Source: Eledone cirrhosa (taxonomy: Eukaryota). Taken from it: a DNA stretch of 64,000 bases. The first letter of the stretch is position 1; the number at the start of each line of letters is the position of its first letter. Below, piece by piece: positions 2,468-47,794 of the stretch. The stretch lies in the NCBI GenBank assembly GCA_964016885.1, contig OZ024744.1:6448001-6512000 (forward strand), given 5' to 3'. The position numbers and the translations under genes are program-made. The notes beneath the pieces were generated by a model. The model saw nothing but the letters and a program-made list of their open reading frames with translations. It made no database searches and was not told the DNA's origin.

Positions 2468-5400
2468 TGTCATCAAGGTAAATAAGGAGTCCATCTACCC
2501 CAGTTCCAGAACAAACTTTCTAGATAGACTGCCAACCAAACCTAACAGAACCTTTCTTATACACTATTAGATGGACGTTCAGTCCCTTCAGTTCTTCCGT
2601 CTTTGATGGATTTTGTTTTCTATCGTGCAGCCTGTCCATAAATCCCTTTTCTCACTAAGCATGCTTTGTTGGGTTGTCAGTTTAGTCTGCAACGATCCGA
2701 TCATGTGAAATGTATTGGGTTACATTTTATTAGTAGCACTTGAGTGCGTCTTGACACAAATATGTTTATTTGTATATATATCCCATTAATTCCAATTACT
2801 TTCGTCTTCTTGCCAACGTTAATGTTTTGTCTCTCATCCCTTACTCCACTGGATAGCGTTATGGCTTATGTCAGACGCTGTGACCCCAGGTGTACCAGCA
2901 GTGCTGTTGGCAGGGGTAGAAACTTCCAAAGTCCATCTCAACGGCTAAAGACCCTGGAGTTCTGTCTTTCATTTGTATTTTGATTTTTTAAAAATACTTT
3001 TTTATGGTTTCCCCTTTAAAAATTGTTTTTCATTTTACCTTGTTTTCCTTCCGTCTTATCTTCTCTTTGTTAATTTTTAAATGTATACTAGCAAATGGCC
3101 CCCGTCCATTGGACGGTGTTAATTCTTGGTAGGACTGCAGTCTTAATGGTGAAATTCCGTTTTGTCGATGTTTAACATGGAGGATAATTTTACGTGATCA
3201 ACTCTTTCAATAAAAAATGAGACGGTATTCAGAAAGAGCATGTTTTATTTACAGATATCTGTCATTAAAATGTGAAAATAGAGAAATATCGGAAATAGAA
3301 AATATCGTTTGGAATGTCGTTTAATTGACTGAATGGTGAAGAATCGGTACAAAAAGCTTAGACGACAGTTCGGTTGACATGAAGGCAATCTGTAAGAAAC
3401 TACATGTTTAATTGAATTATGAAATAACCTGGGGCATATGGAATGCTGTCCATTGAAATGAAAAATGGTTGATTTCATCAATGGGCATTTGTTGAAAGAG
3501 TAACGTTACCTATTGTGAAAAGTAAGTAATCGCAATAAGGACCAACCTGAAGGGGCTTTCAAGTTCACGGAAAAACTATTGGAGGGCTGCCTTGTAAACC
3601 ACATTTTTTGTAAATCTTCCGGGAGCGTGGTAAAAGAGATTGGCCGAGTTTCCAACTCTTGAACATCCCACATACAGTTGGCCGTGTGAAAAGCATGGCG
3701 TACTGATGTCCAGCCCAACCACTTTTAGTGACTGCCCCTGGGCTTTGTTAATTGTTATTGCAAAACTTAATCGAATGGGGAATTGGATTCTTTTCATCGG
3801 AAAGACACAGTCAGTTGGAATAAGTGGAACTCGGGAAATAAAAACAGAGTCGCCAGCGTCTTTTCCCGTAATGATTGTAGCGTCGAGAACGTCATCCAAC
3901 ATTTGCGTTATAACCAAGCGTGTGCCATTGCAAAGCCGAGGAGGTTCCAAGTTTCTCAAGAGTATGATGGGACTTCCAAATCTTAGGCAGAGTTTATGCG
4001 GTGGCATTCCCGATGGCTCTTGTGAGTTTAAAAACTCTGTTGGATAAAACGTTACTTGCGTCGGATCCGTAATCGAATCCATCGAAGCATAACATCGCTC
4101 TTGGGAAGGAAGTTGACGAAGCAGACATGTGTTAAGAGCTTGTACGGTGGAATTTGTAGGAGCTAAGATGGCCCTTTCACACATCCATTGATGACTGACG
4201 TAATTTGTTGAGAGGTCGGGGTAAACTCTTGTGCAAATATCCTCAGGGCTGGAGACGTAGTTACCGATGGTACTTATGTCAACCAAACCGTTTACGTCGA
4301 TTGGTAAGTTCCCATTACAAACATCCAATAACTTTGAAGTATAGTAATTGTCACCGTCTTGTTAGTGGAGAATCGATCGCATGTTGATGGTTAACTTTCC
4401 CAACTGGACGAAGCGCCAAAGTTGAGAATGTTTAATGCAAGCATCTATTTCATCAACTGTTTGGCCTTTTGGGATGATGGGAAGAGTTTGACGAAAGTCC
4501 CCAGCAAGAAGCAGAACGGCGCCACCGAACGGTTTAGAATTGGAGCGCAGGTCATGTAGCGTTGTATTGATTACATCAAGTGCTCTTGTTGGACATTGTT
4601 TCCTCGTCCCAGACAATCAATTTGCATTTTTGAAAGACAGCAGCCTCATCAGAATTCTTCTTTATATTGGTGGTCGAATTTTCAACATGACTGATGTTAA
4701 GGGGAAGCTTAAATGTTGAATGGACTGTTCTGCCGCCGTCTAGCACTGTTGCTGCTATTCCTGAAGACGCTATTGCAATGGCAATCTGTCCATGTTGGCG
4801 AACTTTGGCAAGAAGGAGGTTGAGGAGAATTGTCTTTCCTGTACCATCTGGCGCATCAAGGAAGTGGCTACCACCGTTGGTGTCTTCAAGCATGGTCAAA
4901 ACAAAAGTATAGACATCAGCTTGTTCAAGATTCAAAAGTTCTTCTCTTTCTTGAACATAGGACAGAAGCTTGGCAGCACCGTAGCATGTCTCCCTTAGTA
5001 GGGGGCGGTTACAAACAGCCTCATTTTCTCTTTTAGGGGATTCCATATAGTAGTTCTTCAAGGGACGGCCACCCATTTACAAAAGTATATCTTCTAGAAA
5101 TATGAGACCGCAATTGTACATTTCATGTGTAAACTGTAAATTCATGTCTGTGGACGCAAAGCGAGATTGCATTAGGATGTCCAAGCACAGGCTGTCACGA
5201 TATTTATCCCAGAAAGACTGTGGATTCCCAAGACTGCAGTATACCAGCATAACGGCGAAAATCTTACGAAGAGCAATTGGTGACTGCAACATTGATGCTT
5301 CATGGAGGGCGTGGTCATAGTGGTCATCATTGTCGAGAAGACCTAATTTGGAGCAGGCCTCTTTAAATGTTGAACAAATATGGCCATTGACGGTACGAAG

Positions 5401-6773
5401 GTCTTCAAAGGAAGTTGGACTTTTGACAACGTGCATTAGAAGACGAAGGTGAAAACATTCTGAATTGAGCGGGTGAACTGTGTACACTCTGGAGAGGGCA
5501 TCAGACTCACGCATCGAAGCATCTCTTTGTGAAATGCGTCCTCGCTTTCTTCTTTGCCAACAGCGGGAAGATTTATTCCACGTGTATAATGTAGACAACT
5601 CCGCATAAAGAAGTGTTCTGTTAAGAGAGTCAGAAGTACAAAGTTCAAAGAATCCGGTAAGGGTCGTTCTTCGGGGTTGTCTTGCACAGTCAAGCATATT
5701 TTCTTGGTTAAAATACACCCGTTGACCATTCTCCAAATGAACGCTGAGGTTCACGTTCATGGATCGGAAAACGGAATATGCGCCAAAATGCTTCGTTAGA
5801 AGAGATGTAGCGTCCAGTTTGGAAAAATGTGACTTCATCTGTGGCGGCATCAGGGTTATCGGTCTTAGCCAACTCAATAACTGCTCGATCGGCTCCCTTA
5901 TGAATATACTTGCAGATGTATTGGATTGATTTTACGGAGTTGCAGAATTCAACATTAATGTGGGCTGGAAACATTTTACAAAGCACCTTGTTATGTGGTA
6001 CAACGCATCGGTTGTCGATATTGAAATCTTGACCACCAACCATTGTTATAGTTGCCGTATGTCCACCCTCCTGTGGTGCCCAGCGACGGTATAAAGGGTA
6101 GCCATCATCACCAGTTTTGGTTTCATGAATAAGTTTACGTGGGTAACGCTTTGTACATTTCCCATTATCTATACATGCAGATTTTGGATTTAGGTGGCCA
6201 CACTGTCCATGGATCATGTTGGTTTTTATAATTTGAAAAAGGACAGGGTCTTCTTGGGGATTTGGCAATTTAGTACTTATAACGGAATCAACATCAGTTG
6301 ACATGAGCTTTTTTTGAAGACAAAGGAGAATATGGGCATGTGGGAGTCCTCCTTTCTGCCATTCTACGGTGTACATGAAACACCTTACTGGTCCAAAATA
6401 TTGTCCGTATTTTATAACATCCATCATTTTCATAAGTTTCAGGTGAAACACTATAGATGTGATATCATGCCTGTGTGAAGGATTTTGGCCATGAAGTAAG
6501 TGAGACTGGATGTCAAACCATTTTGGATTACATGTGAAGGTGATGAAAAGATCAGGACGGGCCATAATGGCGGACGTAGGTGAGAGCAACATGCATTTTT
6601 TCATGCATGTAACGGGGGCCTCCAGTGTATGACGATGGCAGAATGACAGAAAGCCCAACATCCGAAGCAATAACCTAATCATTTCGATTGATTTCGTCAC
6701 GTAGATTGTCGTATTCTTCTGAACGCAGTTCCTTTTGATCGTGTCTTATCCATTGGAGGCGTTCAGTGTCGAT

Positions 6774-6854
6774 CTGGAAAAGGAAGAAATTGTTGTGGTA
6801 AATATTGAGTGAACTGGCTAAGGAAATTTCTGAACGAAATCATGAAATAGTTAC
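6774..6854 (-). other. 81-nt GT-AG intron in the Helitron 1 Rep region
   Basis: aag|GTAACT...ttcttccttttcCAG|atc. Removal joins VDIFAK to IDTERLQWIRHDQKELRSEEY, a conserved Helitron motif. Confidence 0.8.
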
Positions 6855-7879
6855 CTTAGCAAATATGTCTACACAGTATTGATTGAGGAGCATCCGTGTT
6901 CCATGCAGAATGTTGGTATTGTTCTTGCGAACCATAAGCCGAAATGCATAAAATTCCATTTGTGAAATGGTTTTACGTGGTTGAAGATACATTAAAGTTA
7001 CCGGATTACACTTTGGCAAGTCAATGCGGTAGCCATCGTCGCCAAAGGGGAACAGTAATGGATATTGGAGGGCATTATATGCAGGATGAAGTTCATTTAT
7101 TTTTTGAAGACGCGAGTCCTGCCATTCAAGAACAATACCATGGTTTGAAGCACTCTCATTAGGACTTGTTATAAGCACCGCAACTTCATCGGTTTGGGGT
7201 CTGTTAAAGGAACCCCGATGCTGCCCTGGTGGAGCGTTGTCACCTCGAATGACAACCTTGACTTGATTGGTGTTAGCATCTCTACGCTGAAAAGCAGTTT
7301 TGAAAATGGCGACGTAGGGGTTTATGGTATGAAGCATATATTGAAGGGGCTGCAGAAGAAAATGTATTGTTCCTTTAGCAACTGAAGCTCTTCGTGCAGT
7401 TTCTTCAGGTCCGTTCCCCATAAAGTAAATCTGGAGAAAACTGTGTTCATCGCCATCTTGTGGAATAATGGAGCCAATTTGATGGTAAATTTGACCTTGC
7501 ACTTTGAATGTGGGCATATAATTTCCATGTTCTATTGGTGTATGACCAAAGCTTGTCATTTGGAAAGCCGAATTGTAGGCTCTTATATTTCTAAGAAAGT
7601 GTTTAGAATCAGGGTGGTCTCCAAGCAGCAGAAAATTCAAAGGTTCGGCACCGACTTGTAAATGAGGCAATCTAACCGTTCCATTGGAGAAGCATATACC
7701 GGTAGATTCTGCTGGCCACCCCATTTCGTTACAGCGGACGCAAACAGTTGACATGCTACCAATGATGACATGTAGTCCTCTTGGAGGCTGTAATGAAAAG
7801 CCTTTTTAGACCAGTAACAGGAAGAAACCATCGGAAAGACATGAGAACGCATTTTCCGTTGAGAATCAGCCGCAATCCT

Positions 7880-8190
7880 TGTTGCCCTTTGGTCAACAGT
7901 CTCTAAAGCACGGCTATTTGAAGTAGAAGCAGCATTGCGAGCACGCCGGAGTTCTGCTTGTTCAGCTTTCTGTAATGCTCTGATGTTCAAAGTAGAGGCA
8001 GCATTGTGAGCACGCCGGAGTTCTGCTTGTTCAGCAGTCAGTAATGCTCTGGCCTTCGAAGTAGAAGTAGCATTGCGAGCAAGCCGGAATTCTGCTTGTT
8101 CAGTTGTCTGTAATTCTCTGGTAATCAAAGTAGAAGCAGCATTGCGAGCACGCCGTAGCATACATTGTTCTTCTGTCTCGCTTGCGCGCA
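7880..8190 (-). repeat. 60-bp (20-aa) coding tandem repeats in the Helitron 1 N-terminus
   Basis: EQAELRRARNAASTxxxRAL-type units about five times. Confidence 0.85.
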
Positions 8191-8396
8191 AAGAACGCAA
8201 AGCAAAAGCTTATCTTGTTTTTCTTCCAATGTGACTCTTGCTTTCTCGAGGCATTTTATGGAAAATCTGTAATTGAATAAATCTGAAACAAATTAAATCA
8301 AAGAAATTTACCTGGTTGCTGTTTATAGGACTTCTAATGAAGATTTTGAATGCAAAGTCCCATAAGGATTAGAAAAATGGCGATATATATATATAA

Positions 8397-9854: not shown

Positions 9855-10435
9855 TAAATTAAGGGTTGTGATGTCTGAGAGACATGCGCCATATCCACTG
9901 CAGAATAAGCTCAAAGATTCCAATGAATAGATCCGAGCATCTCATATCAACTAGAAATAGATTGACATATATATATATAAAATAAACATGTGGATATGGC
10001 GCATGTCTCTCAGACATGACAACCCTTAATTTATTTTTGGATATATATACGGCCCCTTAATTGTAGAGCTAACTCAGTTGAATGAACTCGGCTGCTATTT
10101 CTAGCTGTCGATAATCCTATTCACGTTTATAATACAACACGTAGTTCGAGTCATTCACAGATTTGCATTTGCTTTGTAAACGCAGATAGTTGTATCTTCT
10201 CCTTTGGTGGTCATCCAGGATGATTTACTTATTAATTGGTGAAATATATTTTTTATTTAAAGAAATATATACAAAGGAGATTAATCATTTTAAAAGGTAT
10301 CTACATTTTAAGTTCTAGTTAAACTTTAATTGGTTACCTACTTAGCTATGTGTGCTTACATACTTTACAAATTATTGTGATTGTTCCATATGTTTATTTT
10401 ATATATATATATGTCAATCTATTTCTAGTTGATAT
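9855..10435. mobile_element. Non-coding HHR element B (about 491-nt unit): plus-strand body 9990-10435 with inverted arm 9855-9989
   Basis: The reverse complement of the arm reads from the body's 3' end (atgtttatttt...ctagttgatat) through 45 extra nt into the body's 5' start (gtggatatggcgcatgtc). Confidence 0.75.
10198..10280 (+). ncRNA. Hammerhead-like fold with swapped G3-C8 core (GTGGTCA)
   Basis: 9-bp stem I tctcctttg/caaaggaga, stem II base cca/tgg, GAAA-tatattt...aaatata-TA. Confidence 0.55.
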
Positions 10436-10610
10436 ATATATCTATATTTGTTTTGCAAGGTTTTTGATATGTAATCGTGTGTCGAAACAAATATTGTTAT
10501 ATTTGGGGAGGGTCATATTGTTGTAATATTGCCAGAACACACTCATTGTTTGGTTGGTTCTCGCTTCTGTATAAACATAAATTGCACAAAACTTTCCTGT
10601 ATTACAGCCC

Positions 10611-10881
10611 CACGTTATACCCTAACGGATAGTACGATTTATACGTGGATATTTTACGTCTTGATGTGGGAGCTAAGTATGTTTTGTTTATACCTTTACT
10701 TATTTGCATAGCGAACGTTTCCACGAACCAAAGTATCGTCTTCCTGTCTTCCTCCGGTTGCAACGTTTTTTGAAATATCCACTTCTGCGTTTACAGATTG
10801 ACTTTGTTAGTTTCAGAAGATCCCGTTAAGGGTGAAAGCAGCGATTCTTTGCTTAAACTTTAATCTGTTATTTTAATAAAT
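10611..10881 (+). mobile_element. Internally deleted 3' fragment of the Naiad family at 60430-62136
   Basis: 10611-10710 matches 60948-61050; 10720-10881 matches 61977-62136. Confidence 0.75.
10809..10859 (+). ncRNA. Type-I hammerhead, U4A variant core (CAGAAGA)
   Basis: agttt-CAGAAGA-t-ccc/ggg-t-GAAA-gcag/ttgc-TT-aaact. Confidence 0.6.
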
Positions 10882-10887
10882 ATATAT

Positions 10888-11650
10888 ATATAAGTATGTA
10901 CACGTACATACATATATGTATACCGACGTACAGTAGTATGTATATATATATATATACATACATGCACACATATATATATGCACGTATGGATTCACCGAAC
11001 ATTTATTATAATGCTCGGTGTGTTTGTAAACAAACATCCCGTATTAAGCCGTAGTGTCTAGCAACCACCATACGTGCATATATATATGTGTGCATGTATG
11101 TATATATATATATACATACTACTGTACGTCGGTATACATATATGTATGTACGTGTACATACTTATATTTAAGTAACAGCCGTACTAAGAGTGAGAAATGA
11201 AATATCGTTTCATTTTTTCCGTTTATCGTTTTCGGTGCACCCGGCCAATTAACCCACTCGATATGCAAATTGGGCTACTCAGCCGTTAATATGCATAAGG
11301 TAAGTATATACGTTCAACAATCTGGCAGGAAGGTATACGTTGCTGACGATAGCTAACAAGCTTGAAACTAGTACAGCGTTCCTTTGTCAGTGTTGAACAA
11401 ACGAGCAACGGTGGTTGCTAGACACTACGGCTTAATACGGGATGTTTGTTTACAAACACACCGAGCATTATAATAAATGTTCGGTGAATCCATACGTGCA
11501 TATATATATATGTGTGCATGTATGTATATATATATATACATACTACTGTACGTCGGTATACATATATGTATGTACGTGTACATACTTATATTTAAGTAAC
11601 AGCCGTACTAAGAGTGGGAAATGAAATATCGTTTCATTTTTTCCGTTTAT
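10888..11650 (+). mobile_element. Non-coding HHR element C (422-nt unit), 1.4 units (11068-11650) plus inverted arm 10888-11069
   Basis: catacgtgcatata recurs at 11069 and 11491. The arm is the reverse complement of about 11410-11590. Confidence 0.85.
11322..11390 (+). ncRNA. Minimal type-I hammerhead ribozyme
   Basis: cgttg-CTGACGA-t-agct-aaca-agct-t-GAAAC-TA-GTA-cagcg, with extended stem I ctggcagg/cctttgtcag. Confidence 0.85.
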
Positions 11651-11748
11651 ATATATATACATATACATATAAACTTAAGAAAATTAACAAAGAGAAAATA
11701 AGACGGAAGGAAAACAATGCGAAATAAAAAACATATATATATATAAAC

Positions 11749-12402
11749 ATACAAATGAATTTATGAGGGATGAACACCGATACAAGTATACATGTGTTCG
11801 AATTGCAAATGACCAAGTTAGCTAGGTTGAAAAATACTAATTTAACATAATATGGTTTGCCTGTCTCGATTTAAAATAATAGATCAATAAAAATAACAAA
11901 CCTATATTGGCAATGGCCGTGATACCCGGACAAATTCTAAATTTGTTTCGCAACAATTAAGTGAAAGTTACTATTCCTGTGCTTTTCTGCGGGTATCCAG
12001 GAAAATACGTATCAATCACTTCAGAATACTTAAAAAGACTGATAAATACGTGTTGTTGAACGCACATGTGTCCCAGCGCCTAACTCGTCCCATACTCGTG
12101 CCGCTAAAAATAGCAGCCGGTTTTATGGGACTAAAATTAGCTCAACGTATGGAGCCGTGAATATCATATATTGAGTTATAAACTCGAAAAAGTCTTTTAC
12201 TATTAAATAGCTCATAGAAGGGAATATTTCCTCCGAGCCGTGTAATACAAATTAATATATGAGAGATGAACACATGTATACTAGTATCAGTGTTCATCCC
12301 TCTCATATATTCATTTGTATTACACGGCTCGGAGGAAAGATTCCCTTCTTTGAGCTATTTAATTGTAAAAGACTTTTTCGAATTTATAACTCAATATTTG
12401 AT
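11749..12402 (-). mobile_element. Non-coding HHR element D (496-nt unit) with inverted arm 12268-12402
   Basis: atacaaat.aat.tatgag.gatgaacac at 11749 and 12245. The arm spans this junction. Confidence 0.7.
11921..11997 (-). ncRNA. Hammerhead-like fold with variant core CAGAAAA
   Basis: Minus strand: gatacccg-CAGAAAA-gca...tgc-GAAAC-aaatt-tag-aattt-GTC-cgggtatc (8-bp stem I). Confidence 0.6.
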
Positions 12403-14912: not shown

Positions 14913-17880
14913 CTAGGGCGGGTAAAATTCCCGAGATCCATGGACGAGTTCTCTCCAGCGGTCTCTGTCCCTCATTATCGATGCCATGTCCTGCGTCTCT
15001 AACAGACCAGTGTCTGTCCTTAGGCTATCAACATACGTTAACCTTGGTCTTCCTCTTCCAGTGTGTCCATGTAGAGGATCCCACAGGAGCACTGAGTGCA
15101 ATGTCAAATCTGGATGTCGGTGAGCATGTCCAGCTAACCTCGATCTCCTCTGTGTCACTTTTGAGCTGACTTTTGGGAGGCTCCCGTACAGCTCTGAGTT
15201 TTTCATCCTCAGTGTATACTGATTAATGTTCAGAGCCATCCTCAGCATTCTCGTGTAGCATCCATCCACCATCTGAGTGAGTTTCTTGGTCAGTGTCCAA
15301 GTCTCAGACCTGTACAGCAGCACAGACTCCACTGTAACAATGAAGAGGCGGATTTTCAGGTCTTTACGAAAGTCCGACTTCCACACCGATCTCAAGCTGT
15401 GGCACGCCGCCCAGGCTTTTCTCTTCCTCTCAACCACATCATCTTCCAAATACAGGAAGTCCTCAACCAATTCTAGCGGCTTCCCGCCTACATTAGTGAA
15501 CCCCTCTGGCTTCTCAACATTCTCTACCAGATATTTTGTTTTAGTCTCATTCATTCTCAGCCTCACACTCACCGACACAGTCTCAACCTCCTGCATCAAA
15601 TCCTCTGTCTTCTTCACTGTATTTGTCACCAAAACTATGTTCAGCAAAACTATGTTCAGCATCCGATATCTTTTTCGCCTTAACTCTCCTGCTCTGAGCC
15701 GGTGCTACAGTAAAGCCAGAGTCCTTGTGTTTCTCCAGTGCAAGGCGCATACAATAGTCCACTACGATGATAAAAAGGCAGGGAGCCAATGTATCTCCCT
15801 GGAGCACTCCAGCCAGTATCTCAAAGAACTTTGTCATCCCATCAGGTGTAATGACTTGGGCTTTGGTGTTGGTGTAGAGCAGTGATATCAGGCCCACTAT
15901 CTTCTTGGGGATTCCATAACCCTGTAAGATCTTCATCAGGCAGTGATGGTCCACAGAATCAAAGGCCTTCCTAAAATCAATGAAAACCATGACCGCAGGA
16001 CGACACTTTGTTCTAGCTCCCTCTAATATCCTCCTCAGCATCAAGATGTGACTGGTGGTTGATCTTCCTTTTCTGAAGCCGTTCTGGCTGTCCCTGAGCT
16101 TCTTCTCCATCTCAGGCTGGATCCTGTTAAGAATCATCCTGTTGAGGGTCTTTGCCACAAGTGACGTCAGTTGCTGTTAGAGAGATCTGCCTTCTTTGGC
16201 ACTGGGACGATGTTACTGATCCTCCACTGATTCGGAGCAACTCCTTTCTCCAGTGCCTGGTTACAGAACCCCAGGATGATTCCATCAAAATCACACCTCT
16301 TCATCACCTCTGATGCCACTCCATCTTCTCCACGAGCCTTGCCCTCCTTGATCCTCTTCTTGGCTCTCCGAAGCTCCTCTCTGGCGAAGGGCTCTGTTTC
16401 AATATCCAGTTCCTCAAACAGCCGCCTGATCTCCCCAGTGCTCTGGGCTGTGGAGGGTGGCTCTCCTAGTAGGGTCCTAAAATGGTCTAGCCATTTCCTC
16501 TTCCTATCCTCGGGCCCTGTTCCCTGGATCTGACTCGAACACCTTCTCTTCCTCCCTGTGATCTCGTTGATGATCATCCAGCTCTCCTTACATCCAGACC
16601 TGTCAACAGCTCTCTCCACACTTCTGATCTTCTCTATCAGTGCCTCCTCTCTGGCCTCAGTGTAAGCGGTACAGAGTTCTTGCCTCATCACCTCAACAAT
16701 CTCCACCCTCTCCTCCCTAGGATCAGCATATTATTGATCCTTGGCAGCTTTCAGGTGTTCTCTGGCTGCACACACTTTGGGCTTTGCAGAGCTGACGTGC
16801 TTCCCTTTGTTCTTTTTCCTCGGCACCAGGGTTTCACTTGCTTCCGCCACTGCATTGGTGAAGTGCCCGTACCTCCTCGTCACACTCTCCCCAGTCCATC
16901 CAATCTCTCTCTCCTCTGACTCTCCACACAGAGCACTAAACCTGTTTCTCACTTCCACTGTGAACCTCTCCTGTAGCTTATCATCTTCCTTGAAAGCTCC
17001 CCAGTCATAGATTGCTCTCCGGGGCTGAGCCTTGCTCTTTCTTAAGCTCACCCGGACCTCATACATAACAAGCCGGTGGTCACTACCCAGTGTACTGAAA
17101 TAGTTGTATGGTTCTGTGTTCTGAACACTATTCTGCCACTTTTTCCTCACCAGAATGAAATCAATCTGGGACTTGGACAGGTGCATATCTGAGATGTAGG
17201 TCCACATCTTCCCCAGATTCTTCCTAAACCTTAGGTTGGTCGCTATCAAGTTTGCCTCCAGCAGGGTGTCTCTCAGTAGTCTTCCATTTCGGTTGGTGTT
17301 ATGGAATTACCAGCAAGGATCTTCACTGCCCTCCTTACTCAGATGTGCACTGAAGTCCCCCAAAACAAGCAGGATATTGTGTGCCTGAGTGGTGTTGACA
17401 GCTCTACACACCTCCTCATGGAACTCTTCCGCACTCACATCACTGTCTCCCTCGTTTGGACTATAGGCTGAGATGACTGTCAGTCTTGGGTTTCCATTGA
17501 AGGTCACCCTCAACACTCGCAGGGAGACAGACATTATTTCCCTCACCAACAGATTGGTTTTTGCACTGAACACAAAACCCACTCCTCCCACTGCAGCATT
17601 GGTCATGTTCCTCACTGCCGATGTGGTGATGAGCTGACTCCTCTTCCCAATCATCACACTTCTCACGGGCTCATCGTGTAGGATCCTGTGTTCTTGGATC
17701 GCAAGTATCTGTATACCACTCTCCTCGAACAGATGTCCCAACTCCTCTCTCTTCTCCAGCGTCCGAATAGTCCTCACATTCAAAGTGACCATTTTGATGG
17801 TTCTTCTGCAGGAAAAAACTGCATTCTTTATATTTGTCTCAGAGACAGCTGATCCATCATCCAGAGGCCATCCCTGTCAT
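14913..17880 (-). mobile_element. Near full-length RTE-clade LINE (APE endonuclease + RT), frameshifted
   Basis: TLNVRT, IQEHR, LGDFSAH, IDFIL and SDHRLV (APE). QNGFRKGRST, FIDFRKAFDSV and GVLQGDTLAP (RT). GRPRLTY at the C-terminus. Confidence 0.92.
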
Positions 17881-19389: not shown

Positions 19390-21560
<2,171 letters not shown>

Positions 21561-21561
21561 A

Positions 21562-22740
21562 ATTGAGCAAAGTGCTGTTGAAAAGACGCACACATCTGCT
21601 CGGGTTCGGGCAACATGCACCCGTTTTGATCAGGCAAAGACCGAATTGTGGACTTGTTGCCACATCGCGCCTCCACCACCCGGGCCCATTGAACGGCTCT
21701 CGTCCCTTCGTGTTTCAGAGCACGCGCTCTAGCTCTGACAACGCAGCCTTCATGCTTTGCTTTGAAGAATTCGTCGAGTGCCAATCTTGCCCCTCTTCTA
21801 GCTTTCTAACTAACTCTCCCCCTACTCTATTTTCCTCTATCACTACCCCTTTGCTAAACCTTATTGATTCTACTCTAATAACCCTTTTCAGGGTAAACCA
21901 CCACCTGTTATTGACGATCGCACCCGTCAACGCACGCTTAACTAATACGCTAATTCGGTCTCTGTAGGCTTTGGGCGCCGGGAACGACGCGTTCAGCTTC
22001 CAGTTGCCGGGCCCTTGCCTATTGAGTCTATCTAAGTCACCTTCACAGATCAAAAATTTGTGGTCCGTGTAGTCGACTACTTTAAATTGTGGACAACCTA
22101 AACTAGTCTTATCAGTTTCCCTACATACGATCTAGATGACCCGATGCGGTTTGCCCATGTCTACATTGGCACATTCGGATAATCCAGTCTATACCTGTCA
22201 GAAAGTTCAAAACGTCTGAGCAAGTTGTTGAGGCTTTTACACCCTCCTGCCCTGTCTACTATCACCACATAATCCCAGCGTGCATCTAAGATACAGTCCC
22301 AGTCGCCCACTAACACTAAAGAGCGGGACGTTCCAAGAAAGGTATCTAGACGTCTGAAGAAATCTGGTCATCCTGCCCCTGATGGGGCGTAGACGGCTAC
22401 TAGCCTGAAAGCATTGTCTTCGCTGCCTGTCACGTCCAGTACCACCGACTTACCTCCTGGGTCCAGGAAGATGGCCCGTATGGCGAGATCCAAGCATCTC
22501 CGAAAAAGCACAGCAACTGCTCTCCCCGATCCTGGACGGCTGGGAGATGCGTAGACATCGTAGCCGCCGAAGATCTGTGCGAAGGCTCGTGCTTCTGAAA
22601 TTTTGGTCTCGCTGATGGCCATCAGCGAGACCAGAATTTCTAGTGTTAGTGACCTGAGGTCGTTGAGCAGGTGACCCTGCTTCCAAGATGACCCCAGGCC
22701 ACGTACATTTATACTGCCTATTCTAAGTAAGGCCATATTG
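21562..22740 (-). mobile_element. L1/Tx1-like LINE ORF2 N-terminal APE endonuclease fragment
   Basis: SINVRGL, ISETK, VAVYAPS, (VG)DWD, DHK, GPGNWKLNAS. Confidence 0.8.
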
Positions 22741-22869
22741 CTGGGGGGCGTGGCTCAGCCATGTTTTTTTTTTTTAAAGTAAAATGTTCAAATATTGTTC
22801 AAATATTTGGGCCAAATGGCCCAAATATCATACTTCCCCCTTCACAAGGCAAAGTACAAGGGCTTATAT

Positions 22870-26164: not shown

Positions 26165-26337
26165 TTAAAATGATTGAAAATGTATACCATGCCTTCGGAT
26201 CTTTATTTTGATATATATATATGTATATATATGTATGAATGAAGTAATTCCGTAGGAAAAGTCCAGGAAAAAAGAGTGCTCTATGTAAGCAACAGAGCTT
26301 AATTATTATTATGTAATAAACAACATAAGGCAATTAT

Positions 26338-26395
26338 TCCATTTACCAGTGGTTTCTTAAAAGCAAAAGGTTTTGCTTTCAATCCTCAGAATGAA
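26338..26395 (-). ncRNA. Type-I hammerhead (mirror of 34251-34308)
   Basis: ttcatt-CTGAGGA-ttgaaagcaaaa/ttttgcttttaa-GAAAC-cactg-GTA-aatgga. Confidence 0.85.
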
Positions 26396-26530
26396 AAAAT
26401 CCTGGTTTGTTTATTGAATTTGGATCTTAAAACCAAAAAAAGGCAAGCTATATGAAAGTGAGGCTGGAGAAGGAAGAAGGAAAGGAAAAATAAAAATAAA
26501 ATAAGACTACCCATACGACCACACATACAC

Positions 26531-26611
<81 letters not shown>

Positions 26612-26741
26612 CATACACACACGCGCATACACACACACGTTATTCCGGGTTGAATCGGAGGCAGCCACAGTAAGCAAGGCACTCAGTACACCGCAGAGCA
26701 TGAAGGTTATAATACAGTTGAGAATCTGTGTATGTATACAA

Positions 26742-26772
<31 letters not shown>

Positions 26773-26774
26773 TA

Positions 26775-26808
<34 letters not shown>

Positions 26809-27186
26809 TGCGTATGCGCGCACGCACGCACGCGTATACAAATATAAATATATTTCCCCCATACACATGTATGTGCGTGCATGCGCGCATACGCGCAGGG
26901 TATGTTCTGTTGAAAGTGTCTCGTGAATTTATGGCTACAGTTGTATAGATTATACTTAGAAATTGTCTACAGAATTCCCTAAACCTTCGTCAATTTACTA
27001 GAACCTTTAAGAATTTAGCTTTTAAGGAATCTCCCCTCCTCCAAAACTATCTACCATGACTGACCCCATACTAATCTTACAGACACCTGTAAGCTAAAGA
27101 GAAAGCTAATGATAAGGATTGGCTCCAATCTGAATACAGAAATCTGTCTGCCTCTGTTCCTCTAAGAACAAACATATACAAACATT

Positions 27187-27277
<91 letters not shown>

Positions 27278-27455
27278 CTACACACACACACGCATATATA
27301 TATATACACACACACATATACACACACACACATACACACACACACATACACACGCACACACACATATACACACGCATATATATACACATACATATATATA
27401 CATGTATGCGCGTGTGTACACGCATACACATACGTACACATAGCCATACCCACAC

Positions 27456-27532
<77 letters not shown>

Positions 27533-27985
27533 CATACATTCACACAATCAAGCATATATACACACGTACATGCATACACATACATAAATGCACTCCTCTA
27601 CATATTCACACACGCAAATAAATATTAGAAAAAAAAATATATATATATTATAAAAATATATAAGGCAGCAAACTGGACAGACAAGCGTGGTAAGAAACAC
27701 ACACAAAAGCACATATACATACGCACGAGATAGTCAACGCATTCACACACTCTCACACATAAAAAAATTCCAAATACAAATAAATAACCGCATACATACG
27801 CATACATGCATAACCACGCACAAGTGTACAATCTATACACACACACATGTGTATACAACTATATGCACACACACACATATATGCATACATAAACACACAT
27901 ATATATACATAAATACAAACGTACACACACACATATATATACACGTACACATACACGCACAACAGAACACAAACACACACACACG

Positions 27986-28017
<32 letters not shown>

Positions 28018-28084
28018 CATACAATTATCAATATATACACACGCACATATGTACACACACACATATATACACACACACATATAT

Positions 28085-28157
<73 letters not shown>

Positions 28158-28326
28158 CATGCATATACACATATACACACATACACAACCACGCACACAC
28201 ACATGCATACGCATACACACACGTATATGCGTGTGTGTATGTAAAACTCAATCTTAGATAAATCATAAGGACCTTACATATACGTATATATAGTAGTAAA
28301 GTATTAAAGCAACATAAGGCAATTAT

Positions 28327-28386
28327 TCCATTTACCAAGGGTTTCTTAAAAGCAAAAAAAATGTTCCTACAATCTTCAGGATGAGA
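28327..28386 (-). ncRNA. Type-I hammerhead, partly degenerate (mirror of 32375-32435)
   Basis: CTGAAGA...GAAAC-ccttg-GTA-aatgga. Confidence 0.6.
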
Positions 28387-28517
28387 GAAACCTGGCTTAT
28401 CCACACATACACATATATATACACACACACAAATACATACATATATAAATACATACACACAGGCACACACACACCTACGTATAAACATATATACATACAC
28501 ACATACACACACATATC

Positions 28518-28595
<78 letters not shown>

Positions 28596-28817
28596 TACAC
28601 ACAAATATACACACACATACACATAGGTATGTGGAGGGCAAGGCAAAAAGAATATATGTGGGGGGGGGGGGGCGCATAGGAGAAGGTAAAATATAAGGGG
28701 AGGTAAGGGAGAAACAAATATAAAATAAATGTAAGTATACAAGAGTACAGAACGTAGAAACAGTAAAATAAAAATAAAAATAAAAACCGTAGCAGAAGTA
28801 AAGAGCGGGAGAGGAGT

Positions 28818-29827
28818 TCAAGGCGGTTGATTTCTCATAGGAGTGTCAATCCAGTTACAGATCAGGTGCGGTCTCAGATGAGGACAGCATCTGAAGATCT
28901 CAGTCTTTGAATTAAGGCAAGCGGAAGTGTCTCTCAAGTTTAGCAAAATCCTATACTTTTCTGTGGTACACAAAGAACAATTCTTTGTGCCCCTTTGGTA
29001 CTCCCTCGAATGGTCTAATATAGACCAATCAATAGAGTACGGGATGTTACTATCCTTGAGTTCCCACACCTTACTTGCGAGGGCCGTTGATGTTCGTTTA
29101 TCGGAGTGCTTAAAAGAAGCGACATGTGAGTAAAATCTGGTTTTAAACCTGTCCTGGGTCATACCGACATATCGCTCACTCCTGGCTGGCTGGTTGTTGA
29201 TTACTGGTGTTATCGTAGCCTCATAAACGACAGATTTAGTGTTACATCTACCCTGCAATGGGCGTTCGTCCGGCTTCCTGCAACTGCATCCTGGATTTAT
29301 TCTCGTCCGGTTTGAGCTGGTGATTTTGGACTTCATAGATGGGCAACAAGAGTAGCTGATCTTGACTACGTTCCTATTAAATATCTTATAGTATCTATGA
29401 TTAGGAGGAAAATGTTTGTCTAATAGTTCAAGGAATTTCCTTCCTACATTAGTTTTGACAGTTAGAGAGAAGGGGGATGTGAACCAAATAATCTTCCTTT
29501 TCCTGTTATTGTGGTTAGTTTTAGGGGGGGGGGAGTAGGTAAATAAGACATTTTTTTCTGTAAAACCGCTGTTCTTAAGGGCTTTATTATAATAAGGGGC
29601 GGCTTTATTAAAAATGTCTATAGACGAAGATAAGGTAGAAATCCTACGGCTAATGTTAGGAATAAGATTATTAAAAACTATAGGGGGATGGCAAGACTCT
29701 TTGTGTATATACCTAAGATTTTCGTTAGGTTTATGGTAGGGTTTAAAAGAGGCAGTAAGTAAATCAAGATTAATATCAAGAAAGTTAGCATTAGTAAGGT
29801 TCGTATCTATAGTAATTTTAAGGTTAA
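28818..29827 (-). pseudogene. Inverted copy of the Naiad RT thumb + GIY-YIG region
   Basis: 339-aa ORF nearly identical to the C-terminal half of 29850-31972, lacking the insert and the frameshift. Confidence 0.9.
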
Positions 29828-29849
29828 AATCGAACAAGTCGTTAAAAGA

Positions 29850-31972
29850 ATGAGATGGAAGGCAATGGTTTACGACGGACTATTCAGGGCTGATACTAAA
29901 GATCGTTTTGACATCAAATCTCGTAAATATCCACCTAGAATTAAAGACATGGCCAGCTTCGAATTAGACCTCGTTAATCTAATTAATGATATCAAGTTTC
30001 GTAAGTACAATAATAACTTTCAAACCAAACTTTCTAACGGTATTTCTAATTTTAGAAATTCTACAAACACTTTCGTTCTTTCTGATAAAACTAAAAACCT
30101 CTTTGAAGTTAATAGTACTTTGTATAACCAACTTTTAACTAATAGTATTACCAATAAATATCAATTAACTAATAATAATACCTACAATACTATCAATAAA
30201 GAAGCTAAAGAACTAGCTAGTTCTTTACAAATAGATAACCGGATTGAAAGTTTAGCTAAGCGTAAAGAATCTATTACCCTTAAAGACCATAAATTGGACT
30301 TTACTAATCGACCTAGTTGTAGATTGATTAACCCGGCTAAATCCGAGGTTGGCCTTGTAAGTAAGAATATCTTAAGAAAAATAATTCTCCAAATCAGAAC
30401 TAACACTGACCTATCACAGTGGCTAAATACTTCCTCTGTTATTTCTTGGTTCAATAATATACAAGGTAAAAATAAGTGTAGATTTACCCAGTTTGATATT
30501 GTCGATTTTTACCCTTCTATTACTGTTTCCTTATTAACTAAGGTCTTAGATTTTGCAAGACCCTCCATTAATATTTCTAAATTAGAAGAAGACATTATCT
30601 TCCATGCTAGAAAAACTTTACTTTTTACTAATGATAATATTTGGGTTAAAAAGTCAAACCCTGAAAACTCTTTTGATGTCGCAATGGGTTCATATGACAG
30701 TGCGGATGTGTGTGACGTAGTTGGATTGTTCCTTCTCCACACCCTCAAAGAGAAATTTCCGTCCCATAATATCGGTTTATACCGTGATGACGGATTAGCA
30801 GTTTCTCATACCACCAACGGCCATGACCTTGATAAATTCCGTAAAGATTTAATCAATACTTTTGCTAATCTTAACCTTAAAATTACTATAGATACGAACC
30901 TTACTAATGCTAACTTTCTTGATATTAATCTTGATTTACTTACTGCCTCTTTTAAACCCTACCATAAACCTAACGAAAATCTTAGGTATATACACAAAGA
31001 GTCTTGCCATCCCCCTATAGTTTTTAATAATCTTATTCCTAACATTAGCCGTAGGATTTCTACCTTATCTTCGTCTATAGACATTTTTAATAAAGAACAA
31101 TTCTTTGTGCCCCTTTGGTACTCCCTCGAATGGTCTAATATAGAACAATCAATAGAGTACGGGATGTTACTATCCTTGAGTTCCCACACCTTACCTTATT
31201 ATAATAAAGCCCTTAAGAACAGCGGTTTTACAGAAAAAAATTCTTATTTACCTACTCCCCACCCCCTAAAACTAACCACAATAACAGGAAAAGGAAGATT
31301 ATTTGGTTCACATCCCCCTTCTCTCTAACTGTCAAAACTAATGTAGGAAGGAAATTCCTTGAACTATTAGACAAACATTTTCCTCCTAATCATAGATACT
31401 ATAAGATATTTAATAGGAACGTAGTCAAGATCAGCTACTCTTGTTGCCCATCTATGAAGTCCAAAATCACCAGCTCAAACCGGACGAGAATAAATCCAGG
31501 ATGCAGTTGCAGGAAGCCGGACGAATGCCCATTGCAGGGTAGATGTAACACTAAATCTGTCGTTTATGAGGCTACGATAACACCAGTAATCAACAACCAG
31601 CCAGCCAGGAGTGAGCGATATGTCGGTATGACCCAGGACAGGTTTAAAACCAGATTTTACTCACATGTCGCTTCTTTTAAGCACTCCGATAAACGAACAT
31701 CAACGGCCCTCGCAAGTAAGGTGTGGGAACTCAAGGATAGTAACATCCCGTACTCTATTGATTGGTCTATATTAGACCATTCGAGGGAGTACCAAAGGGG
31801 CACAAAGAATTGTTCTTTGTGTACCACAGAAAAGTATAGGATTTTGCTAAACTTGAGAGACACTTCCGCTTGCCTTAATTCAAAGACTGAGATCTTCAGA
31901 TGCTGTCCTCATCTGAGACCGCACCTGATCTGTAACTGGATTGACACTCCTATGAGAAATCAACCGCCTTGA
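29850..31972 (+). pseudogene. Naiad-type PLE RT + GIY-YIG ORF (5'-truncated, frameshift near 31240)
   Basis: CRLINPAKSEVG, FDIVDFYPSI, AMGSYDSA and GLYRDDGLA (RT). CSCRKPDECPLQGRC linker. VVYEA...YVGMTQDRFKTRFYSH (GIY-YIG). CSLCTTE. Confidence 0.92.
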
Positions 31973-32191
31973 ACTCCTCTCCCGCTCTTTACTTCTGCTA
32001 CGGTTTTTATTTTTATTTTTATTTTACTGTTTCTACGTTCTGTACTCTTGTATACTTACATTTATTTTATATTTGTTTCTCCCTTACCTCCCCTTATATT
32101 TTACCTTCTCCTATGCACCCCCCCCCCACATATATTCTTTTTGCCTTGCCCTCCACATACCTATGTGTATGTGTGTGTATATTTGTGTGTA

Positions 32192-32243
<52 letters not shown>

Positions 32244-32374
32244 GATATGTGTGTGTATGTGTGTATGTATATATGTTTATACGTAGGTTTGTGTGTGCCT
32301 GTGTGTATGTATTTATATATGTATGTATTTGTGTGTGTGTATATATATGTGTATGTGTGGATAAGCCAGGTTTC

Positions 32375-32435
32375 TCTCATCCTGAAGATTGTAGGAACAT
32401 TTTTTTTTGCTTTTAAGAAACCCTTGGTAAATGGA
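32375..32435 (+). ncRNA. Type-I hammerhead, partly degenerate, first in the Naiad 3' UTR
   Basis: tctcatc-CTGAAGA-ttgtagg...cttttaa-GAAAC-ccttg-GTA-aatgga. Confidence 0.6.
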
Positions 32436-32610
32436 ATAATTGCCTTATGTTGCTTTAATACTTTACTACTATATATACGTATATGTAAGGTCCTTATGAT
32501 TTATCTAAGATTGAGTTTTACATACACACACGCATATACGTGTGTGTATGCGTATGCATGTGTGCGTGCGTGGTTGTGTATGTGTGTATATGTGTATATG
32601 CATGTATATG

Positions 32611-32671
<61 letters not shown>

Positions 32672-33272
32672 ATATATGTGTGTGTGTACATATGTGCGTG
32701 TGTATATATTGATAATTGTATGTGTGTGTGTGTCTGTGTGTATATGTGTGTGCGTGTGTGTTTGTGTTCTGTTGTGCGTGTTTATGATATATACGTATTT
32801 GTATGTGTATAATTGTTTAGCTATGTATGTATATGTGTGGATATATATGTTTGTGTATGTGTACGTGTATATATATGTGTGTGTGTACGTTTGTATTTAT
32901 GTATATATATGTGTGTTTATGTATGCATATATGTGTGTGTGTGCATATAGTTGTATACACATGTGTCTGTGTATAGATTGTACACTTGTGCGTGGTTATG
33001 CATGTATGCGTATGTATGCGGTTATGTATTTGTATTTGGAATTGTTTTATGTGTGAGAGTGTGTGAATGCGTTGACTATTTCGTGCGTATGTATATGTGC
33101 TTTTGTGTGTGTTTCTTACCACGCTTGTCTGTCCAGTTTGCTGCCTTATATATTTTTATAATATATATATATTTTTTTTTCTAATATTTATTTGCGTGTG
33201 TGAATATGTAGAGGAGTGCATTTATGTATGTGTATGCATGTACGTGTGTATATATGCTTGTTTGTGTGAATG

Positions 33273-33316
<44 letters not shown>

Positions 33317-33894
33317 GGTATGGCTATGTGTACGTATGTGTATGCGTGTACACACGCGCATACATGTATATATATATGTGTATATATATGCGTGTGTATA
33401 TGTGTGTGTGCATGTGTATGTGTGTGTATATATGCATGTGTGTGTGTGTATGTGTGTGTGTGTATATATATATATGTATGCGTGTGTGTGTGTAGATATG
33501 TGTGGGGGGGTGTATGTATGAATGTTTGTATATGTTTGTTCTTAGAGGAACAGAGGCAGACAGATTTCTGTATTCAGATTGGAGCCAATCCTTATCATTA
33601 GCTTTCTCTTTAGCTTACAGGTGTCTGTAAGATTAGTATGGGGTCAGTCATGGTAGATAGTTTTGGAGGAGGGGTGATTCCTTAAAAGCTAAATTCTTAA
33701 AGGTTCTAGTAAATTGACGAAGGTTTAGGGAATTCTGTAGACAATTTCTAAGTATAATCTATACAACTGTAGCCATACATTCACGAGACACTTTCAACAG
33801 AACATACCCTGCGCGTATGCGCGCATGCACGCACACACATGTGTATGGGGGAAATATATTTATATTTGTATACGCGTGCGTGCGCGCATACGCA

Positions 33895-33951
<57 letters not shown>

Positions 33952-34250
33952 GTTTGTATACATACACAGATTCTCATCTGTATAATAACCTTCATGCTCT
34001 GCGGTGTACTGAGTGCCTTGCTTACTGTGGCTGCCTCCGATTCAACCCGGAATAACGTGTGTGTGTATGCGCGTGTGTGTATGTACATGTTTGTGTGTGT
34101 GTGTGTGTGTGTTTTCGTGTATGTGTGGTTGTATGTGTAGTCTTATTTTATTTTTATTTTTCCTTTCCTTCTTCCTTCTCCAGCCTCACTTTCATATAGC
34201 TTGCCTTTTTTGTTTTTAAGATACAAATTCAATAAACAAACCAGGATTTT

Positions 34251-34308
34251 TTCATTCTGAGGATTGAAAGCAAAACCTTTTGCTTTTAAGAAACCACTGG
34301 TAAATGGA
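34251..34308 (+). ncRNA. Type-I hammerhead ribozyme at the Naiad 3' end
   Basis: 6-bp stem I, 12-bp stem II, canonical CTGAGGA/GAAA/GTA. Confidence 0.87.
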
Positions 34309-34339
34309 ATAATTGCCTTATGTTGTTTATTACATAATA

Positions 34340-34370
<31 letters not shown>

Positions 34371-34720: not shown

Positions 34721-37700
34721 TTTTAAAGAGAAAACAACGTAGCACGAAGCCCCCAAAACATTTATTTTTAATCATAAGAAGTATGTGTTGTTCGATTAAA
34801 AACGGTAAAATGTTATGGCATATGAAAGGTGAATGAGTGTAAAAGTGTGACGTTGACGCGGTGAAGCTCCAAACGCGAACTATGCCACAAGGAAGTCAGC
34901 AGCCCAAAAGTGAGTCACATGGAATTTATGACAATAATGTAGGATGTTTGGCAATTCAGGGACTGAAGTCGTTGCGGGATGACGGAGATAATGTATGACG
35001 ACTTTGAGTGAAAGGTACAAATGAGGGGGGTGCCATACGTTTGCTACAGTAGAAACATGTAAATTGTTCGTTATGCATTGCGTATATGTAGGCATTCTAA
35101 TGATTTATTTAGTTTGAAATGCTTACCATTCTGTATAGCTGTGGCAGCCAATAGAAACTGTGACGTTGCTTTCCTTAGACTGATTGCAGTGACATAGACC
35201 AAACATGAAGGACGCTCAAAATTCCCCAACACAAATTCTGCACCAACCTCGATTGCAAAAGTAACAGAGAATAACGAATAGCGATTATTACGCCAAAAGA
35301 AAAATGCTGAAGCAACTTCTATTGCACGAGATGCAGGAAACGAAACACAACGTTCGATGCGACAACAAATAAATGATGAGGCAACTGCTGCTGCTTGAGG
35401 TGTAGAAAACGATTCTCAACCCTCACTACGACAGAAAACAAATATTGAGGCAACGTCTATTGCAGGAGATGCAGAGAACCACAGCGTTCATTACGGCGGC
35501 ATAGAAATGCTGCGGCAACCTCCGCAGCTCGTGCTGCATCAACCGAAACACAGCGTCAACTGCGGCAGCAAAGAAGTGTGAGTCAACGTCTTCTCTTTGA
35601 ACTGTATCAACCGAAACACAGCGTCAACTGCAGCAGCAAAGACATGTGAATCAACGTCTGCTGCATGCGCTGGCGAATCCATGGAAAACTGGCTCAACCA
35701 ACCAGGGGGGAACGTGCATTTCAATACATTGTAGCTCAAAGTGGTCACAAGGTTTACAGTCGAAAAGTATGGTGCTATGAATTTCAAAAAGGCAGTATGT
35801 CTACAATTTGGTAATTATTGAAAGCAGCGAGGTATTTGATTGTTAGAAGACGGTTTGTGTCGCAGTGTTGATTACAGAACTTCTTGGTACACAATGTTTG
35901 TGGGTTTACCGTTTGGAGCAAATGCATAAAGGTTTCTTTTGCTTCCCACTCTGGAACATCCAACGTATAGCTGACCGTGTGAAAAGCATGGCTCTTCTAG
36001 GTTTATTCCCGCGACGGACAATGTTTGCCCCTGAGACTTATTTATCGTCATAGCGAAACTACAACGAACTGGAAACTGGAGCCTCCTAAATGCAGAGGGG
36101 ATCTCTGATGTTGACGGACAAAGGGGAATCCTTGGGATTAAAACATTTTCCCACTTTCCACACCCCGAGAGACTCGTCGCCTCGATCAAGTTTTGCGTTA
36201 GTTTATTTACTGTAAGGCAGAGATATGGTTGGTGTAGATTCCTCAAAAGCATAATTGGGCATCCTTGCTTAAGTTCCAATCGATGAGATGGCAACACGGT
36301 GGGGTTCAATGAGTTAACAAACTCAATTGGGTAGTTAATGGGGTCTTTGACTGTATCGATGGACTTGTATGTACACGAAGCTGTAGGAAGAGACTTAAGC
36401 CGTTGATTTTGTTGACAGCCTCATTTTTCAGAGCCAGTATTGCCCTTTCGCACAGCCAGTTTGGAATTTGGTAGTTAGTGCTCATCTCAGGGAATACTGC
36501 ATCTGTCAAGTCGTCAGCACTGTCGACTAAAGTGCAGACCGGTTTGGGGGAGGTTTTTTCCTCTTCATCAAGTGGCACTTTGCCGTTCCCTACTGTCAAT
36601 AGGTTGATAGCAAACTCTGATGACACTTGGTCACCAAGCATCCGAGCTCTCATGTTCGTAGAGAGCGTTAATGTTGTGACATATCGCCAAAGCGGAGATG
36701 AATTTAAGCATGCTCGAATAGCATCAGCCCTTGTTCCTTTGGGAATAACAGGGAGGGTTTGTCTAAATTCTCCGGATAAAAGGACAGTCACGCTTAAAGT
36801 CCGTCCAGTGCCTCCAAAGCTCGTTTATGAGCCATGGTACATTCGTCCCAAACTATAACTTCACACCTTTTAAGCAGTTCTGCCTTTTCTGATCCTTTGG
36901 TAATATTACCGCAGGGTGTGTCATTTGCTGTCATATTAAGGGGGCGTTTGAAGGCTGAATATTCTGTCCTGCCCCCAGGAAGCAAGGTTGTTGCAATACA
37001 GGAAGACACAACAGCAAGTGCTACGTGTCTGTGTTGTCGAACCTTGGCAAGAAGAAGCCGTATGACAAAAGTCTTCCCTGTGCCTCCAGGGGTGCCCAAG
37101 AAAAAGATTCCTGCCGTACGACGGTGGACACAGTCAGCAATAGTGTTATATGCTCGTTCCTGTTCCTTCAGCAGCATTGGTTCATGTTCAGTGACATATG
37201 TAGCCAAGCTGTCAGTGTCGTAGGATAGTTCCCGAAGTATTTCTGCGGAAATGATGTCGGAGCCTGTTCTGTTGGTTTGGGGCAGGTCATATGTCTGCAG
37301 TGCATTCCCACCCATTGCAGCTATCATATTTTCAATTTCAATAAGTGCTTTGTTGTAGATTTCATCTGTGAAGCCTACTTCCATGTCAGGAAGTTGTAAT
37401 TGTGCTTGATGTCTGAAGTCCTCAGAGAAGTCATCTCTGTACTTGATCCACAAGAAGGAAGGATCGGGCAATTCAAAAATCTACAGTAAGACAGCAAAAA
37501 GCTTCCTAAGGCTGTGTGGAATTTGTGAAACAACTGCTTCTGCCAAAGTGGCATCCCACTGAGCACCATCTTCCAGTAGTCCACGCCTGAGGCAGGCCTC
37601 TCTGTACGTGTCGTCGCAAATTTGGCCATCAACAGTTCTTAGGTGTTCAAAACTGGTTGGTCCTCTTACGTCATGGAGAAGCATACGCAGGTAGTAACAT

Positions 37701-47745: not shown

Positions 47746-47787
<42 letters not shown>

Positions 47788-47794
<7 letters not shown>

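Follow-up and report, generated by a model that had tools for sequence, protein, structure and literature searches.

Element C, a 422-nt repeat of Eledone cirrhosa, is probably a non-LTR retrozyme that is copied in trans by the protein of a Penelope-like element (PLE). It adds a new family to a known class, the animal non-LTR retrozymes, and related molluscan or other repeats may be listed in the supplement of PMC7229834. The initial annotation of this DNA had proposed it as a retrozyme candidate, and that proposal is supported by its copy number, its tandem arrays, a type I hammerhead (HHR) with covarying stems and the finding that at the loci sampled no PLE open reading frame (ORF) stands in register with it.

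The window analyzed here is a stretch of 64,000 nt that contains two insertions of element C. As originally described, the element has a 422-nt period, with 11068-11226 recurring at 11490-11650 (98.1% over 161 columns), and a second copy on the minus strand, where 21561-21064 aligns with 11095-11594 (95.0% over 502 columns). Absent from that description is an inverted copy of 11410-11594 at 10885-11069 (97.3%). The first insertion is composed of two arms that meet at a head-to-head junction and have (TA)n on the outer side of each. With monomer positions numbered from window 11069, its forward arm (11068..11650, plus strand) comprises a full 422-nt unit (11069-11490) and 158 further positions, and ends at a long 3' site followed by (TA)n (11650..11670, no strand). 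The inverted second arm (10888..11067, minus strand) runs from monomer 342 to 102 and ends at a short 3' site, again followed by (TA)n. The 56 nt between these two fixed 3' ends (11595..11650, plus strand) contain a AAATGAAA/TTTCATTT hairpin and are here called the tail, a concept taken from the PLE descriptions in PMC11167929 and PMC8557442. The second insertion (21064..21561, minus strand, HHR at 21313) is a single arm of about 1.2 units that belongs to an older subfamily and ends at the short 3' site; its (TA)n flank (20957..21064, no strand) is common to the end of another PLE-type repeat. The two copies had been called differently phased, and their start and end points do differ, the forward arm of the first stopping at position 158 and the second copy at 102. 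This is not a random permutation, however, as 3' ends lie at two fixed sites and only 5' ends vary. A difference in phase alone does not point to a circle.

Element C is non-coding, with no stop-to-stop frame of at least 150 aa overlapping 10888-11650, and GC content is 33% in the bin 10001-12000 (under 50% being the retrozyme criterion). Its left neighbor, outside the element, is a fragment from the 3' side of family W, an unrelated PLE, with an HHR-like motif of its own (10572..10884, plus strand), and the first insertion is placed tail-to-tail in the (TA)n end of this fragment. A stretch of about 750 nt with a GTAAGT start and an AG end, found in other copies of W (cf. locus L302:2457-3200), is missing from the fragment, which by its sequence looks like a spliced retrocopy, whereas the other copies observed appear to retain the intron. 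None of the seven window proteins was named by Pfam. Helicase fragments with 69-bp repeats and broken reverse transcriptase (RT)/endonuclease frames are located at 3576-8209, 35872-40421, 14913-17876 and 21715-22754; from their motifs we take the helicase frames to be Helitron-like and the RT/endonuclease frames to be LINE-type.

Each window copy has one HHR only. In the first insertion this is a type I hammerhead with an extended stem I (11312..11398, plus strand), in which an internal loop is followed by the outer arms GTTCAACA/TGTTGAAC. Its core CTGACGA occupies 11343-11349 (the counterpart in copy 2 starts at 21313 on the minus strand), stem II 11350-11363, GAAA 11364-11367 and stem III, ACTAGT, 11367-11372, all on the plus strand, and the hammerhead consensus predicts a cut after A11373 of that strand. 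Helix I consists of 6 bp plus the internal loop and a lengthy extension, helix II has 4-5 bp, 4 bp of them above a U.U pair, and helix III is 1 bp with a CUAG loop. Copy 2 has two stem mismatches, AGAT for AGCT in stem II and CAGCAT for CAGCGT in stem I. The label of minimal HHR given in the initial annotation is incorrect: with its 1-bp stem III and CUAG loop, the motif has the canonical metazoan type I form as set out in PMC4209133, where the minimal HHRs of PLEs are described as having no helix III or loop 3, a helix II of 7-8 bp and a helix I of 4-5 bp. Of the hairpins listed in the initial annotation, all five arm pairs were located, within 11195-11486. Forcing stem III in the monomer changes the predicted fold from -18.4 to -12.5 kcal/mol, a cost of about 6, and a canonical type I HHR is expected to require a second copy, i.e. 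a dimer (PMC4209133, PMC7229834). It follows from this literature and the modeled folding that, by analogy, the HHR of element C would act as a dimer. A circular fold, as recommended in the initial annotation, was predicted for the unit of locus L156 at -143.4 kcal/mol with 69% of positions paired (z -8.2), and none of 60 shuffles was as stable.

Across ten natural sequences of the clan formed by element C and its sister families, the HHR core is invariant, both sides have changed in 11 of 22 stem pairs, and 90% of stem cells pair versus 34-49% in slid controls; these ten sequences are mutually related, and shuffle counts are therefore not probabilities, and the covariation count also leans on sister family D. 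Core columns are variant at 1.4% versus 3.1% overall, in loci partly chosen on this region. Rfam gave no matches above the gathering threshold in the window, and no hammerhead model matched 11250-11450 at E values up to 10, a point against the retrozyme reading. Family D has a diverged 466-nt unit that keeps both homologous end sites, about 68 nt apart, as well as the tail hairpin, and its HHR has the same ACTAGT stem III with compensatory stem changes (L198:1210-1958; L183; L287; L293; and L305, an array at G000:C1:5.738-5.752 Mb with at least 31 HHRs). Further clan variants with periods near 466-500 nt are present. L189 and L068 contain a different tandem repeat that also carries an HHR; its period is 310 nt, and its stem III is the palindrome ACGCGT.

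The copy number and tandem arrays anticipated for a retrozyme were both found. In the 3.0-Gb genome, an HHR 29-mer is matched exactly 8,052 times, in dispersed copies and tandem arrays. A 33-mer from the tail is matched 9,982 times, a 62-mer from the subfamily present in the window 1,536 times and a less strict pattern for the clan 38,680 times, with no matches for the reversed control in any case; these figures are pattern counts rather than numbers of insertions. The 135 loci annotated are a small and partly biased sample, most being drawn from the first 100 listed matches of the 29-mer, the 33-mer and the 62-mer on contig C1 and some from the best matches of another genome search. Arms were accepted at an identity of at least 84% (82% in an earlier set) and a length of at least 100 nt, or 55 nt if the end was canonical, and 133 of the 135 loci contained arms that passed. 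At most one HHR is found in 159 of 215 arms and two or more in the other 56, with up to 47 in one retrieved stretch. Satellite-like arrays of 15-20 kb with mosaic units are also present, and some copies of element C are 99% identical.

The distribution of arm ends is revealing of how these copies were made. Among the 3' ends of 220 arms, 86 lie at position ~102 and 100 at position 158, two sites 56 nt apart, and 34 lie elsewhere. (TA)n adjoins 182 of 186 canonical arm ends versus 238 of 2,068 random flank positions, and it masks any target-site duplication (for retrozymes, more than 4 bp when present). Both ends are canonical in 51 of 68 head-to-head pairs, and 50 of these 51 join a short to a long end, the remaining one being short-short; after dropping one local duplicate, the pairing is mixed in 49 of 50 (p=4.5e-14). 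A non-canonical end occurs in the other 17 of the 68 pairs, which counts against the explanation preferred here. At their 5' ends, by comparison, the arms are scattered, with stops in every 21-nt bin, and a candidate peak at 269-280 was not above adjacent bins once arms at risk were counted. The predicted cut site is passed by 152 of 186 arms without a pile-up of 5' ends there, in a test biased by the choice of most loci with a pattern that spans this site. Arms longer than one unit number 113 of these 186, with 36 longer than two units and 12 longer than four. L1-style twin priming was rejected as a source of the paired arms, as adjacency was seen in only 2 of 50 pairs.

This anatomy is that of endonuclease-bearing (EN+) PLEs such as PAc of Anolis, which, as described in PMC11167929, PMC8557442 and PMC3846280, exhibit 5' truncation, an inverted 5' copy, an HHR upstream of the tail, a tail at one end only and AT-rich or (TA)n targets. 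Insertions of PLEs are reported to include a copy that is inverted and truncated at its 5' end, and a tail of 30-40 bp that is often present at one end only (PMC8557442, PMC3846280). The tail has been explained as the segment between two reverse-transcription start sites, and the PLE protein, a predicted dimer, as cutting and extending both target strands (PMC11167929). Unlike the EN+ PLEs of these accounts, element C is without an ORF, its tail is 56 nt rather than 30-40, and in its arms the whole unit is repeated head to tail. Non-coding PLE passengers with multicopy head-to-tail insertions are known from the Chlamys elements, e.g. MRC1; these are described as generally having a 3' end similar to that of an autonomous family and as being without canonical HHRs (PMC8557442), whereas no such partner was found for element C in the sample.

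The arms of one insertion appear to derive from the same template. They differ at 155 of 2,920 informative cells (5.3%) versus 16.5% in shuffles (65 pairs), and in the youngest subfamily (21 pairs) at 13 of 1,106 (1.2%) versus 2.6%, with none of 5,000 shuffles as low. At L156, nine HHR-bearing units over two arms are identical except for one change and have rare variants in common. Because arms run past the cut site and may contain several units, a linear monomer released by cleavage is excluded as the template, which leaves a circle or a multimer that had not been cut. The young uniform arms of L154, L155, L156, L185, L188 and L205, with units 0-1.5 changes apart, favor a circle or a uniform source, and the units of the long satellite arrays are 11-30 changes apart, which makes them unlikely templates for such arms. 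Unlike units occur within arms at L151 and L153, where variants alternate, at L186, where the subfamily changes inside one arm, and at L191. These favor multimers, template switches or later exchange, and those of L151, L153 and L186 are not predicted by a single monomer circle. The genome alone cannot decide between circle and multimer. Arrays with a two-unit higher-order period were observed at L100 (G000:C1:49.584-49.588 Mb) and L064. A circular-dimer template was considered for them and rejected, since of the rare variants that recur periodically in L100 only two are also present in the inverted arm and L064 is without a matching second arm; local duplication after insertion is the simpler reading of a periodicity mostly missing from the inverted arm. 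A footprint of A-to-G editing was likewise rejected, the initial excess of 59 versus 28 becoming 106 versus 87 (p=0.22) when each locus was counted once.

From these footprints we infer a cycle that includes transcription, cleavage, circles, a PLE dimer and a PLE partner. Tandem copies of element C would be transcribed, paired hammerheads would cut out unit-length RNA, and a host ligase would close it into circles. A PLE protein, likely as a dimer, would then bind the tail region and nick a (TA)n target on each strand, and reverse transcription would start at two sites 56 nt apart, one for each target strand. Each cDNA would run back through the unit, often beyond the cut site and for several rounds, and stop at a scattered position, after which the two cDNAs would be joined head to head. 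In single-armed copies one arm may have been lost or never made, and some arrays may have been enlarged later by local duplication. Given that element C is a retrozyme copied in this way, two starts on one RNA are the more probable arrangement, and a slight preference can be stated for a circular over a linear multimeric template. A more specific proposal, in which both subunits of a dimeric Penelope-type RT start on the same circular RNA 56 nt apart and copy it by rolling circle into both nicked strands, is tentative. Two published observations count against the cycle, namely that PLE insertion in vitro did not require cleavage by the HHR (PMC11167929) and that cleavage was absent in 8 of 9 retrozyme dimers from Xenopus, as reported in bioRxiv 10.64898/2026.07.22.740005.

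The same family and the same kind of mover could also yield the observed arms without a circle, if the inverted arm arose by self-priming or fold-back of a single cDNA, an endonuclease cut at the other tail boundary and a linear multimer served as template. This is a variant of the best explanation and is compatible with a retrozyme copied in trans. Self-priming has been proposed earlier from palindromic junctions (PMC3846280), as has endonuclease resolution for the tail (PMC8557442). Palindromic junctions occur in 12 of 49 pairs, as fold-back predicts and to the detriment of two separate starts; one arm could have copied the other in 29 of 49, variants common to both arms follow naturally, and a linear multimer fits the unlike units inside arms. 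However, in the other 20 of the 49 pairs neither arm is contained in the other, a class that simple fold-back copying cannot yield unless the center of the palindrome was later deleted, as it could have been. Further, the longer arm is of either type (26 and 24 of 50 pairs), and two RT start sites were observed in vitro (PMC11167929). Fold-back on a linear multimer is the less likely course.

A cognate PLE was sought around the copies. With two PLE proteins of this genome as tblastn queries, none of 134 loci had an ORF in fixed register, contrary to the permanent contiguity with a PLE ORF that the initial annotation had named as grounds for abandoning the retrozyme claim. The same was found with three PLE proteins at 205 partly overlapping loci and in 20 further clan regions. 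The many PLE fragments near element C are expected, given their common (TA)n sites. Two loci have an ORF fragment on the same strand and no more than 100 nt upstream: the one at L151 breaks off inside the ORF, and the other, an ORF end 92 nt upstream at L232, was rejected as the partner, being a chance join, as none of 14 other copies runs on into C. Four PLE-type families (30, 20, 30 and 25 loci) contained only nested C insertions, for the 20-locus family among the matches listed, and a clan profile found no remote pseudo-LTR among the matches listed. No PLE with a common HHR or tail was present among the families sampled, in a genome that holds more families, and this counts against the best explanation. 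The copies could instead be 5'-truncated pseudo-LTR pieces of a rare, unsampled cognate autonomous PLE, with the arrays as by-products. Their anatomy is that of PLE ends, many PLE families of this genome have intact ORFs, and the loci sampled are a small share of the total. The reading is nonetheless improbable, because the arms that exceed one unit run into the next unit rather than into an ORF, no locus or further clan region had an ORF in fixed register, and one of the two upstream fragments is the chance join. Least probable is a satellite that spread through duplication at the DNA level and unequal exchange, with the hammerhead as a relic; this would suit the long mosaic arrays and the locally arisen periodicity of L100, but most loci are short and dispersed, and neither polarized fixed 3' ends nor strict end pairing is expected from DNA duplication.

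Among potential partners of a PLE-copied retrozyme, hybrid insertions point weakly to the autonomous family X, which is joined head-to-head to C with complementary short and long ends at L153:1424-2184, L214:3264-3444 and L315 but not at L314; three of four direct joins are too few, and the hybrid X-C pattern has 7 genome matches, 4 of them with (TA)n in between. Family W, with 19 matches of which 6 are one duplicated locus, was rejected because the end-pairing rule is not followed, and family Z because it has only 11 terminal bases in common with C. Two ends, two arms and (TA)n are likewise seen in autonomous PLE families of this genome; the tail measures 63 nt in X and about 37 nt in Z, and W is also two-ended. 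In the window, family Z is found at 19393-19782 and 20570-20958 as a two-armed, non-coding PLE-type end with 1,905 candidates; its insertion has the 37-nt tail on one arm, and the 11 bases lie in its short end and in the long end of C. The PLE at 26304-34342 has two arms, an RT ORF and a GIY-YIG-type ORF, and HHR-like motifs of its own; it has 50,900 protein candidates genome-wide, many with 714-aa open frames. At 47787-58465 there is a broken PLE in three tandem 3,334-bp copies that are ~99% identical, relatives with 775-aa open frames being common. At L210:1307-4946, a two-armed C insertion lies between outward-pointing 5'-truncated W ORF pieces, one on each side. PLEs of this genome are presumably Neptune-like and Hydra-like, labels that we assign from their motifs.

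Element C fits the animal retrozymes, as characterized in PMC7229834, in every feature testable from the genome. Like the non-LTR retrozymes of coral, mussel and axolotl (Cervera and de la Pena 2020, PMC7229834), it consists of non-coding tandem units, 150-450 bp long in that class, that contain a type I HHR, and its predicted circle is strongly self-paired. Its 1-bp helix III with a palindromic tetraloop is also described there for axolotl HHR_Amex1, and its U.U at the base of helix II for HHR_Amex2. Animal retrozymes give circular RNAs (PMC7229834), and for element C circles are predicted. Of four contig sets considered as a source of RNA, the two runs of organism A gave 8,673 and 92 pieces, and organisms B and C gave 3 and 1 pieces of low depth, from which we conclude nothing. 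The ends of element C are mapped to two fixed 3' sites, inverted arms and (TA)n flanks, and no such ends are described in the portion of PMC7229834 drawn on here. A PLE link was already proposed in PMC7229834 and is argued in bioRxiv 10.64898/2026.07.22.740005 (Li, Clavereau, Pollet), where animal retrozymes are said to resemble PLE pseudo-LTRs. The Xenopus retrozymes of that study are likewise presented as PLE-dependent non-autonomous elements with dispersed monomers and clustered multimers. As set out there, the Xenopus case rests on co-occurrence and pseudo-LTR similarity, and that of element C on the insertion footprint, no cognate pseudo-LTR having been found in the sample. In a literature search outside which most subscription papers fell, no title or abstract was found that reports tail-and-inversion footprints on a retrozyme or counts of short-long pairing.

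The retrozyme class is already known and the surprise is moderate, but the evidence for the mode of copying is unusually clean. PLE mobilization of animal retrozymes has so far rested on shared hammerheads, co-occurrence and pseudo-LTR similarity, whereas in the element C family thousands of copies bear the footprint of PLE insertion itself. Its repeated units make it possible to count how long arms are, whether they share a template and how their ends pair, a task that is difficult in PLEs with an ORF. Element C is thus a small natural substrate for asking whether PLE proteins use circles and whether both tail start sites are used together. If a dimeric RT does act on one circle, this would explain in one step the PLE tail, the head-to-head inverted arms and the tandem arrays of retrozymes, and the short-long pairing in 49 of 50 insertions would be a genomic record of two starts on one circle.
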